Source of the DNA: a virus
Taxonomy: Duplodnaviria; Heunggongvirae; Uroviricota; Caudoviricetes
IMG/VR virus record: IMGVR_UViG_2718218168_000001
Location: 32,001 to 96,000 of that record
Reading direction: 5' to 3' (one strand)
Length of the DNA: 64,000 bases
Shown here: positions 22,104 to 23,102 of the stretch, in pieces
Layout of the letters: the number at the start of each line of letters is the position of its first letter
Position numbering within the stretch: position 1 is the stretch's first letter
The notes under the pieces: model-generated
Told to the model about the DNA's origin: nothing
Databases searched by the model: none
Seen by the model: the letters and a program-made list of their open reading frames with translations, nothing else
Program-made: the position numbers and the translations under genes

Positions 22104-23102
22104 TTATCCGTTACCGCGCGACGGTTTCTGCGTGACAAACGTCTCAAGCATCTTTTCCGCAATTGCCGACCAGGTGTGACACTGGACCTTTTCAGCATTT
22201 TTCACGCGATCAACGCGAGCAATAACCTCATCCCAATCAATCCGCGACTTGATAACCATATGGTTCACCAAAGCCAGGCGATCTGGCGGAAGGCAATCGG
22301 GAGGCGTTAATACCAACGCCCCGCACATTGCCGCCTCAAGTACAGTTAATCCAAGGCTTTCGGGATGCGTAACGATAAACACGTCACTCTTACGCAATTC
22401 AGCTGCAAATTCGGTTGCTGGCACCGGCGTCCGTCTGTATGGAGTTACCGAAATATTCCCCGGATCAATGGTAACCAATCCGTCATCAGTCAACGTTCTG
22501 GCCTCATACGGAACGGTCAGACGCTGAAGGTTCATAAGGATACTTAAGGAGTGATCAAAACCACTAACATCAAATGCAGCGTGGTCTACAAAAATACGCA
22601 GAACATCGTCTGTTTTGGTTTCCAGATGGAACAGATCCTGATTCGCTGCCCATCCAACATGTTTGTTAAAACGATTATGACGCTCTAACCTGCCTGGATT
22701 ATCCAGGTATCGCCAGGTATCATCGCGGACAGTAAAAGTAATATCGACTGGTGCCGAATCCAGCATAGAACCGTCGTATACCTGGGCTACCCATCCAGAG
22801 AATCGGCGACACAGTTGCATGCCTATTTCCCTGGGTACCGTAGTAAAATACCTCAATCCTGGTGCCAAAATGGCCTTCGCAGAACATGCGGTCGCAGCAG
22901 TCAACACAGCTTCAACATAATCCTCCGGGCTTTCGACGCCAGGGGAATATGGACGATGGTATTGCAATGTTACCCCTGCCTCACTAAAGGCGCAGGCCAG
23001 GTTATAAGCCCACATTTCCGTATATGTTTTCACATCACTGATGGCTTCAAATTTTCGCCCAATGATCAGGATGTTCATCGGCTTTTCCTCATTCCATTGC
23101 AT
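22104..23102 (-). CDS. Glycosyltransferase-like protein (GT-B-like), downstream of ban
   Basis: 332 aa; C-terminal IVTHPESLGLTVLEAAMCGALVL resembles the GT1/GT4 EX7E region; start overlaps the ban stop. Confidence 0.45.
   Translation of the reverse strand: MQWNEEKPMNILIIGRKFEAISDVKTYTEMWAYNLACAFSEAGVTLQYHRPYSPGVESPEDYVEAVLTAATACSAKAILAPGLRYFTTVPREIGMQLCRRFSGWVAQVYDGSMLDSAPVDITFTVRDDTWRYLDNPGRLERHNRFNKHVGWAANQDLFHLETKTDDVLRIFVDHAAFDVSGFDHSLSILMNLQRLTVPYEARTLTDDGLVTIDPGNISVTPYRRTPVPATEFAAELRKSDVFIVTHPESLGLTVLEAAMCGALVLTPPDCLPPDRLALVNHMVIKSRIDWDEVIARVDRVKNAEKVQCHTWSAIAEKMLETFVTQKPSRGNG

Follow-up and report, generated by a model that had tools for sequence, protein, structure and literature searches.

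A glycosyltransferase-like gene behind the ban helicase gene of a P1-like phage-plasmid and its probable partners pmgO, pmgP and pmgQ

The dbn locus in a P1-like phage-plasmid

This analysis concerns dbn ("downstream of ban"), a gene carried on a 64,000-nucleotide stretch of viral DNA (positions 32,001 to 96,000 of IMG/VR record IMGVR_UViG_2718218168_000001), which is referred to below as the window. The window belongs to a P1/P7-like punavirus phage-plasmid, with positions 21000-25500 being 98.2-98.5% identical over their full length to Escherichia phages P1 and P7 and positions 1-25000 matching P1-like phages such as RCS47. Widely used in E. coli genetics, P1 is also the prototype of the phage-plasmids that are spreading in clinical Enterobacteriaceae, and about one fifth of its genes are without known function. 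The P1 reference genome has labeled dbn "function unknown, possible glycosyltransferase" since 2004, the P7 record names it glt, "putative glycosyltransferase", and the NCBI pipeline names the protein "glycosyltransferase family 4 protein". Because of these labels the glycosyltransferase call was already known, and an earlier sequence-only reading of the window that arrived at the same call is right but repeats a 20-year-old annotation. What is new is a modest lead: the evidence groups Dbn with PmgO, PmgP and PmgQ in a conserved glycan cassette of phages, related to the enzymes of lipopolysaccharide and capsule, and makes ban an incidental neighbor. In the PHROGs database the Dbn family (PHROG 2518) has no function assigned, whereas the PmgQ family is labeled "glycosyltransferase", the PmgO family (phrog_4603) "alpha-2,3-sialyltransferase" and the PmgP family "unknown"; no publication on the function of dbn or pmgO/P/Q was found in a literature search. 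The features of the window considered here are collected in Table 1.

Table 1. Positions of dbn, its neighbors and its proposed partner genes in the window (aa, amino acids; ORF, open reading frame; dG, free energy of folding)
Feature	Position	Strand	Description	Supporting detail
dbn (P1_gp078; P7 glt)	22104..23102	minus	332 aa, GT4-like, predicted GT-B fold	EX7E = E248/E256; alternative start Met9 (23078)
ban	23102..24472	minus	DnaB-type replicative helicase, 456 aa	Pfam DnaB_C, E 1e-107
hairpin	22057..22083		11-bp stem	Folding: dG -17.6 kcal/mol, z -4.6
pmgQ	13611..14312	minus	233 aa, GT8-like, predicted GT-A fold	YLDLDT; DxD = D79/D81
ppp	14309..15001	minus	Calcineurin-like phosphatase	Pfam Metallophos; lies between pmgP and pmgQ
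pmgP	14983..15609	minus	208 aa, MptE-like, WaaZ/GT42 homolog	VGSGPS motif
pmgO	15507..16169	minus	220 aa, pmgP paralog	VGSGPS motif; phrog_4603 match
pmgM	16333..16911	minus	"Putative morphogenetic"	
Mechanical ORF over dmt	27295..30582	minus	1095 aa	

The overlap of dbn with the ban stop codon, pointed out in the sequence-only reading, can be read directly in the sequence, where the dbn ATG (23102-23100) and the ban TAA stop have one base in common (TAATG). Two starts are possible for dbn, each with its own Shine-Dalgarno sequence upstream: AGAGGA at 7 nt from Met1 and GAGGAA at 8 nt from Met9. Because nearly all Dbn homologs begin at the position equivalent to Met9 in the homolog alignment, the conserved Dbn protein may start there. 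Downstream, the hairpin is located between the stop codons of two convergent genes, baseplate gene 5 (22055-22057) and dbn (22104-22106), and it is probably a bidirectional terminator that closes the ban-dbn transcript; it was seen by folding and was not listed by a scan for consensus promoters and terminators.

Dbn and its partners as predicted glycosyltransferases

The Pfam profile Glycos_transf_1 (PF00534) matches Dbn at E 1.5e-5 with 25.0 bits over residues 229-315 only, and some Dbn relatives exceed the cut-off of this profile (P0099 with 29.9 bits and P0150 with 28.4 bits). NCBIfam gave sub-threshold matches only, to the C-termini of sucrose-phosphate synthase and MshA, while the PADLOC defense models gave no match and a single-sequence search of PDB sequences gave no significant match. 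An AlphaFold model of Dbn built with 17 homologs (predicted local distance difference test, pLDDT, 88; predicted template modeling score, pTM, 0.85) displays alternating beta/alpha elements in two halves. With this model, a Foldseek search of the PDB returned 99 matches at E <= 1e-3, the top ones being enzymes of CAZy glycosyltransferase family 4 (GT4) with template modeling (TM) scores of 0.57-0.66. The best solved structures (GlgM, glycogen synthase, sucrose-phosphate synthase, MshA, PimB' and BshA; E down to 1e-9, probability 1.0) are all of the GT-B type, and the list includes the phage glycosyltransferase 9ir0. As modeled, Dbn thus has a GT-B fold and is GT4-like. Since the fold and the conserved catalytic motif support the Pfam match independently, the glycosyltransferase signal is above chance, and the GT-B-like enzyme proposed from the sequence alone holds up both in the profile search, at a sub-threshold score, and in the fold prediction.

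Conservation within the family was assessed over 128 full-length diverse relatives, reaching down to about 20% identity. The C-terminal motif singled out earlier, THPESLGLTVLEAAMCGALVL, is found at Dbn residues 245-265, and the EX7E glutamates E248 and E256 (HPESLGLTVLE) are kept in 99% and 100% of the relatives, respectively. D173, H174, H246, E248 and E256 are each kept in at least 99%, and the set of positions conserved at 85-100% comprises D110, G150-W151, D173-H174, D183, R224 (85%), F242, T245-H246-x-E248-S249-x-G251, E256, G261, W290 and W311. R224 is a candidate counterpart of the Arg/Lys pair with which GT4 enzymes bind the nucleotide diphosphate, and no conserved N-terminal glycine-rich loop was visible in the homolog alignment. 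The pair E248/E256 forms the EX7E signature typical of retaining GT4 enzymes, and its region aligns in hhalign with that of E. coli WaaG, whose EX7E residues we take to be E281/E289.

Compared with the GT4 enzymes of the Glycos_transf_1 type (WaaG, MshA, PimB', BshA, GlgM), Dbn as modeled shares the two Rossmann domains, a C-domain helix that begins with the EX7E motif, and a soluble or peripheral character. In contrast to them, it is shorter (332 aa vs. 360-440 aa), shows no recognizable N-terminal glycine-rich loop in the homolog alignment, carries invariant motifs of its own (GWAA at 150-153, D173-H174 and W290), and has a sequence likeness limited to about 90 C-terminal residues with a score just under the Pfam cut-off. 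When 1.84 billion representative proteins were searched exhaustively with HMMER, only 377 Dbn relatives (clusters) were returned at E <= 1e-3, indicating that Dbn sits in a small, sharply bounded clade and not in the bulk of GT4. By far its closest viral fold match in BFVD is a 315-aa protein of Tupanvirus soda lake (A0A6N1NPH0; TM 0.75-0.79, 18% identity, E 1.6e-17), which suggests, at the level of predicted structures, that the same small GT-B subfamily is present in giant viruses. Fusions also occur in the Dbn family: P0110 joins a Dbn-like domain to an S-adenosylmethionine (SAM) methyltransferase, and P0099 (620 aa) consists of two Glycos_transf_1-like halves.

The sequence-only reading had also noticed a DxD-motif protein and two VGSGPS-motif paralogs beside ppp at 13611-16169; these are indeed pmgQ, pmgP and pmgO, members of a P1 operon originally named "putative morphogenetic". 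As single sequences, PmgO and PmgP match the Pfam MptE-like profile below its cut-off. A profile built from 12 members of the PmgO/P family matches E. coli K-12 WaaZ, the transferase that adds the third 3-deoxy-D-manno-oct-2-ulosonic acid (Kdo III) of the lipopolysaccharide (LPS) core, with an hhalign probability of 97.1% and E 5.7e-11. The same profile matches GT42 enzymes (Campylobacter Cst-II, Cst-I and a lipooligosaccharide sialyltransferase) at E 7e-7 to 8e-5, and the flagellin glycosyltransferase Maf (5mu5) more weakly. The family keeps a GPS nucleotide loop (G19-P20-S21) and a G-x-D motif (G153/D155) invariant. By profile comparison, PmgO and PmgP are homologs of WaaZ and of the GT42 sialyltransferases, that is, of transferases of the cytidine monophosphate (CMP)-ulosonic-acid type.

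PmgQ has no Pfam match. Its model (pLDDT 93.9) has a GT8-like fold, and the Foldseek PDB matches listed for it are overwhelmingly GT8 enzymes (Skp1 alpha-GalT at 6e-9, glycogenin, WbbM, GlyE and LgtC). D79/D81 and H208-G209-x-P211 are invariant in its family. At the sequence level the PmgQ profile reaches only E 2e-3 against GT8 structures, and because its hhalign match to WaaO is weak (probability 19%) the class was assigned by fold search. The 19-residue Kyte-Doolittle hydropathy peaks at 0.86-1.53 in Dbn, PmgO, PmgP and PmgQ, and therefore no transmembrane segment is predicted in any of the four.

Several smaller observations were made on this part of the operon. Between the mechanical ORFs of pmgP and pmgO there is an overlap of 103 nt, which the RCS47 annotation shows as well, and the true pmgP start may lie further downstream than that of the mechanical ORF. 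An arginine-rich loop in PmgP is conserved only in part. PmgM, whose gene keeps its place beside pmgO in the P1 relatives L172, L216 and L225, has a weak, sub-threshold match to the VRR-NUC nuclease domain (E 3e-4).

The cassette in other phages and in bacteria

A plain IMG/VR scan and a metagenome scan mostly returned near-identical P1-like contigs, whereas querying IMG/VR with a divergent alignment gave the informative loci. Homologs of Dbn and PmgQ occur together in one cluster in loci L004, L005, L093, L173, L094/96, L097, L099, L217 and L220; everywhere except in L220 the Dbn homolog is directly followed by the PmgQ gene, making PmgQ the most constant neighbor of Dbn homologs outside P1. 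Homologs of PmgO/P are part of the same cassette in L004, L005, L093, L173 and L220. Among the lambdoid-type phages, L004 has the order PmgO-like, PmgP-like, a 189-aa unknown, Dbn-like, PmgQ-like and then terminase, and with O, P and Q standing for the PmgO-, PmgP- and PmgQ-like genes, the orders are O, P, Dbn, Q and then terminase in L173, O, P, a second P-like gene (P'), Dbn, Q in L093, and P, Dbn, Q, O in L005. The environmental phage contigs L094-L099 and L217 carry Dbn followed directly by one or two PmgQ-like genes, and in L220 a span of 6 kb holds Q, Dbn and also a WaaZ-like gene. In P0091 (522 aa), moreover, a PmgO-like domain and a Dbn-like domain are fused into a single protein. The earlier hunch that the DxD and VGSGPS genes go with Dbn is therefore well founded, the homologs being contiguous in many non-P1 phages and in one case fused.

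The composition of the cassette varies between lineages. The enterobacterial phage cassettes (L004, L005, L173) contain no sugar-nucleotide synthesis genes, which fits the use of universal host sugar pools. The L094 and L099 cassettes add a SAM methyltransferase, and that of L099 also a cytidylyltransferase/phosphomannose isomerase (PMI)-cupin protein and a polysaccharide pyruvyl transferase. On the 182-kb IMG/VR contig L099 this extended cassette occupies 5079-11130 in the order SAM methyltransferase, cytidylyltransferase/PMI-cupin, pyruvyl transferase, unknown, Dbn-like and two PmgQ-like genes, the first of which encodes a 471-aa protein with a C-terminal extension.

The helicase gene does not travel with the cassette. 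A conserved linkage of Dbn to a helicase was considered and rejected, as a DnaB-type gene stands beside Dbn at none of the non-P1 loci examined; the coupling of the transferase gene to the helicase gene, pointed out in the sequence-only reading, is thus restricted to the P1 lineage. Because the non-P1 Dbn homologs are partnered with PmgQ and PmgO/P and not with helicases, the translational coupling of ban and dbn is best read as a P1-lineage rearrangement. P1 itself holds a split four-transferase set, with dbn behind ban in the ban operon, which C1 controls, and pmgO-pmgP-(ppp)-pmgQ 8.8 kb away, and in P1-like elements dbn and pmgO/P/Q always co-occur where the contig covers both regions (median spacing 8.8 kb). 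The phosphatase gene ppp is not part of the cassette in other phages. The idea that ppp occupies the slot of Dbn proved only partly right: the order O-P-(P')-Dbn-Q of L004, L093 and L173 agrees with it, but in L172, a 95-kb P1 relative from Citrobacter, pmgO-pmgP-pmgQ are contiguous without ppp and Dbn lies 5 kb away.

In bacteria, Dbn-like genes are found beside WaaZ-like genes. In Brucella pseudogrignonensis (L087) the Dbn-like gene is immediately preceded by a WaaZ-like one, in a cluster that also holds Poly_export, Wzz-like, ABC-2 permease, ATP-binding cassette (ABC) ATPase and further GT4 genes, and in a Colwellia metagenome locus (L090) the pair, with a 110-aa ORF between its members, stands behind KpsM/T/D-like genes; both are kps-type ABC-transporter polysaccharide clusters. 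The two genes are also adjacent in L174/175, where the Dbn homolog is 53% identical to P1 Dbn, and the WaaZ-like gene lies upstream of the Dbn-like gene by 0.8 kb in L089 and within 2.5 kb in L213. The kps-type setting suggests that the bacterial pair serves the cytoplasmic, ABC-transporter-dependent assembly of a lipid-linked surface polysaccharide. Right after the Dbn-like gene of L089 lies a gene (2999-4528) for a 509-aa Glyco_transf_92 protein, whose N-terminal ~80 residues resemble the middle of Dbn.

The split of the P1 cassette bears on another reading, namely that dbn is a passenger gene in decay or without function, left over as a relic when the cassette was broken up in P1. In addition to the split, such a relic would account for dbn being non-essential, for the stop at codon 31 of the P7 copy, for the internal stops in 2 of 68 distinct P1-like alleles, and for one gut contig that holds a remnant only. 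Against this, 152 of 154 P1-like loci have an intact dbn, the gene is always accompanied by pmgO/P/Q where the region is covered, its median pN/pS (the ratio of nonsynonymous to synonymous polymorphism) over the 68 P1-like alleles is 0.12, and Dbn keeps every family-invariant residue. The gene is under purifying selection, and a relic is extremely improbable. In P7 (AF503408; L002:4105-5103, minus strand) the stop replaces W31 of dbn/glt, and for this reason the deposited P7 Glt coding sequence begins internally. In the P1-like human-gut contig L225 (8123-8365) dbn is a remnant of ~80 aa with other genes around it and with pmgM and pmgO retained, which looks like a natural loss of dbn.

Acceptor and role of the cassette

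It is likely that Dbn, PmgO, PmgP and PmgQ act in one glycan-building pathway, and within it we infer the donor sugars, the acceptor and the biological purpose as follows. Dbn would be an active, soluble, retaining-type hexosyltransferase using a sugar nucleotide; PmgO and PmgP, as WaaZ/GT42-like enzymes, would most likely use host CMP-Kdo; and PmgQ would be a GT8-like retaining alpha-hexosyltransferase, with a uridine diphosphate (UDP)-hexose as the presumed donor for both PmgQ and Dbn. The four transferases would act in sequence on one acceptor, in the cytoplasm. Given the bacterial context and the Waa-like enzyme set, a Kdo-bearing glycolipid fits best as the acceptor. Most likely this would be a lipid-linked glycan of the envelope that contains Kdo; in E. 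coli the enzymes would then act on the inner-core/Kdo region of LPS, on the inner side of the inner membrane. Of the roles raised in the sequence-only reading, a change to a surface glycan is still the most likely one. The outer part of the LPS core is the P1 receptor, so that the cassette would remodel the surface glycan that P1 itself uses as its receptor. For the full reading, in which the pathway remodels a Kdo-containing envelope glycolipid such as the LPS core, a probability of about 0.4 is estimated.

The P1 set and the E. coli waa core set contain the same three classes of enzyme, namely WaaZ (Kdo III), WaaO/WaaJ (GT8) and WaaG/WaaB (GT4). They differ in that none of the four P1 proteins is a Waa ortholog, that heptosyltransferases and kinases are absent from the P1 set, and that the P1 genes are phage-borne and expressed in lytic development. 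Dbn was also compared with WaaS, with which WaaZ is partnered in K-12, and no relation was found. The GtrABC/Oac modules for O-antigen conversion are comparable as non-essential accessory genes of temperate phages that change a surface glycan, as is proposed here for P1. Gtr systems, however, consist of integral membrane proteins that act in the periplasm with undecaprenyl-phosphate sugars, whereas the four P1 proteins are without a predicted transmembrane segment and come from families whose members work with nucleotide sugars inside the cytoplasm.

Several points weigh against the full reading. With 25.0 bits, Dbn narrowly misses the Pfam gathering score of 26.4, and orthology of Dbn to WaaG was rejected at an hhalign probability of 1.5%, with the EX7E region alone aligning. 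Enzymes that build protein glycans (GtfC/Gtf3, GlyE, glycogenin and Skp1 alpha-GalT) are also among the structural relatives of Dbn and PmgQ, and the closest viral fold match to Dbn is the Tupanvirus transferase. The marine phage cassettes contain no WaaZ-like genes and carry methyl- and pyruvyl-transferases instead, from which it follows that the glycan differs between lineages. Masking of the receptor is not obvious in K-12, since P1 progeny re-adsorb to debris, and genes expressed in the lytic cycle have little time in which LPS already present could be replaced. In an hfq host, dbn was up-regulated at 20 min (bioRxiv 10.64898/2025.12.28.696737). In-frame deletions of dbn, pmgO, pmgP, ppp and pmgQ gave normal plaques (PMC9024508), CRISPR interference knock-down classed the same five genes as non-essential (PMC10695390), and no experiment tying any of the four transferase genes to LPS was found in the literature.

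The protein-glycan relatives raise the alternative that the cassette glycosylates a protein of the virion, or another phage or host protein, with PmgO/P acting in the manner of Maf and PmgQ and Dbn extending an O-glycan, by analogy with the GT8 and small GT-B enzymes that extend the O-glycan of serine-rich adhesins. This would suit the "putative morphogenetic" name first given to the operon of the pmg genes, the position of the cassette just upstream of the terminase and head genes in L004 and L173, and the fold relatives, to which may be added Maf (5mu5) and an Actinobacillus glucosyltransferase (8xsg) that is presumably an enzyme extending protein N-glycans. The best viral fold match, the Tupanvirus glycosyltransferase (TM 0.75-0.79), points the same way, as giant viruses glycosylate their fibrils. 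A protein acceptor is nevertheless unlikely: the bacterial homologs lie in polysaccharide export clusters and not beside glycoprotein genes, and we know of no protein glycosylation of the Kdo type. Moreover, the P1 virion proteome paper reports no glycosylation and mentions none of the four proteins in its main text, and the deletions plaque normally (PMC9024508).

In its most novel form the proposal is of a hitherto unrecognized soluble multi-transferase cassette, shared by P1 and a set of lambdoid and marine phages, that builds a Kdo glycan on a host envelope glycolipid or acts on, for example, a virion protein; this is a somewhat doubtful prospect. If one pathway were demonstrated, it would give a function to four P1 genes at once, and the "morphogenetic" label would have been wrong for three of them for twenty years. 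Remodeling of the LPS core by the cassette would, if true, be the first phage-encoded case that is based on Kdo transferases and directed at the phage's own receptor, and it would represent a cytoplasmic route of envelope-glycan conversion, via Kdo-type transferases, unlike the Gtr systems. With the LPS core as the target, the pathway would have a bearing on superinfection, on how P1 adsorbs and how efficiently it transduces, and on the surface antigenicity of lysogens.

The position of dbn in a replication operon would be explained if the cassette hypermodified phage DNA with a glycan, either in the manner of the T-even phages or through a C5-methyltransferase, a 5-methylpyrimidine oxygenase (5mYOX) and glycosyltransferases. 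Phage clusters that glycosylate 5-hydroxymethylcytosine (5hmC) employ BshA/MshA-like GT-B enzymes, add second sugars by means of GT8-like ones, and are also able to attach Kdo (bioRxiv 10.1101/2023.12.21.572611). Together with the alpha- and beta-glucosyltransferases of T4, these clusters resemble the P1 cassette as phage sets of several transferases with GT-B and GT8-like folds working from host sugar nucleotides, with Kdo as one of the sugars attached. Translational linkage of dbn to a replicative helicase gene, the annotation of P1 Dmt as possibly having C5-cytosine methylase activity, and the basic isoelectric points (pI) of PmgO and PmgP (9.3-9.7) also agree with DNA as the acceptor.

Other evidence makes DNA a very unlikely acceptor. 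Unlike in the 5hmC clusters, neither a C5-methyltransferase with a 5mYOX nor a deoxycytidine monophosphate hydroxymethylase was found around the Dbn cassettes examined: the Pfam annotations of the L004 and L005 flanks contain no hydroxymethylase, 5mYOX/TET or C5-methylase, nor do the 25 listed of the 33 Pfam families among 72 cassette neighbors (L094-L101, L004, L005). The top 50 PDB matches to Dbn do not include the T4 beta-glucosyltransferase, Dbn is acidic (pI 5.5), the helicase linkage is limited to P1-like elements, and the bacterial homologs lie in capsule-type clusters. Deletions of dbn, pmgO, pmgP and pmgQ behaved like the parent on EcoA, EcoB and EcoK hosts, which represent type I systems only (PMC9024508 supplement), and wild-type P1 is itself restricted 10- to 1000-fold by EcoA/B/K (PMC9024508). 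The role in restriction evasion that the sequence-only reading had entertained is accordingly disfavored, both by these deletions and by the lack of enzymes that make hydroxymethyl bases among the cassette neighbors examined. As for dmt itself, the mechanical ORF over this gene in the window is longer than the annotated P1 protein, with 1095 aa against the 754 aa of Dmt.

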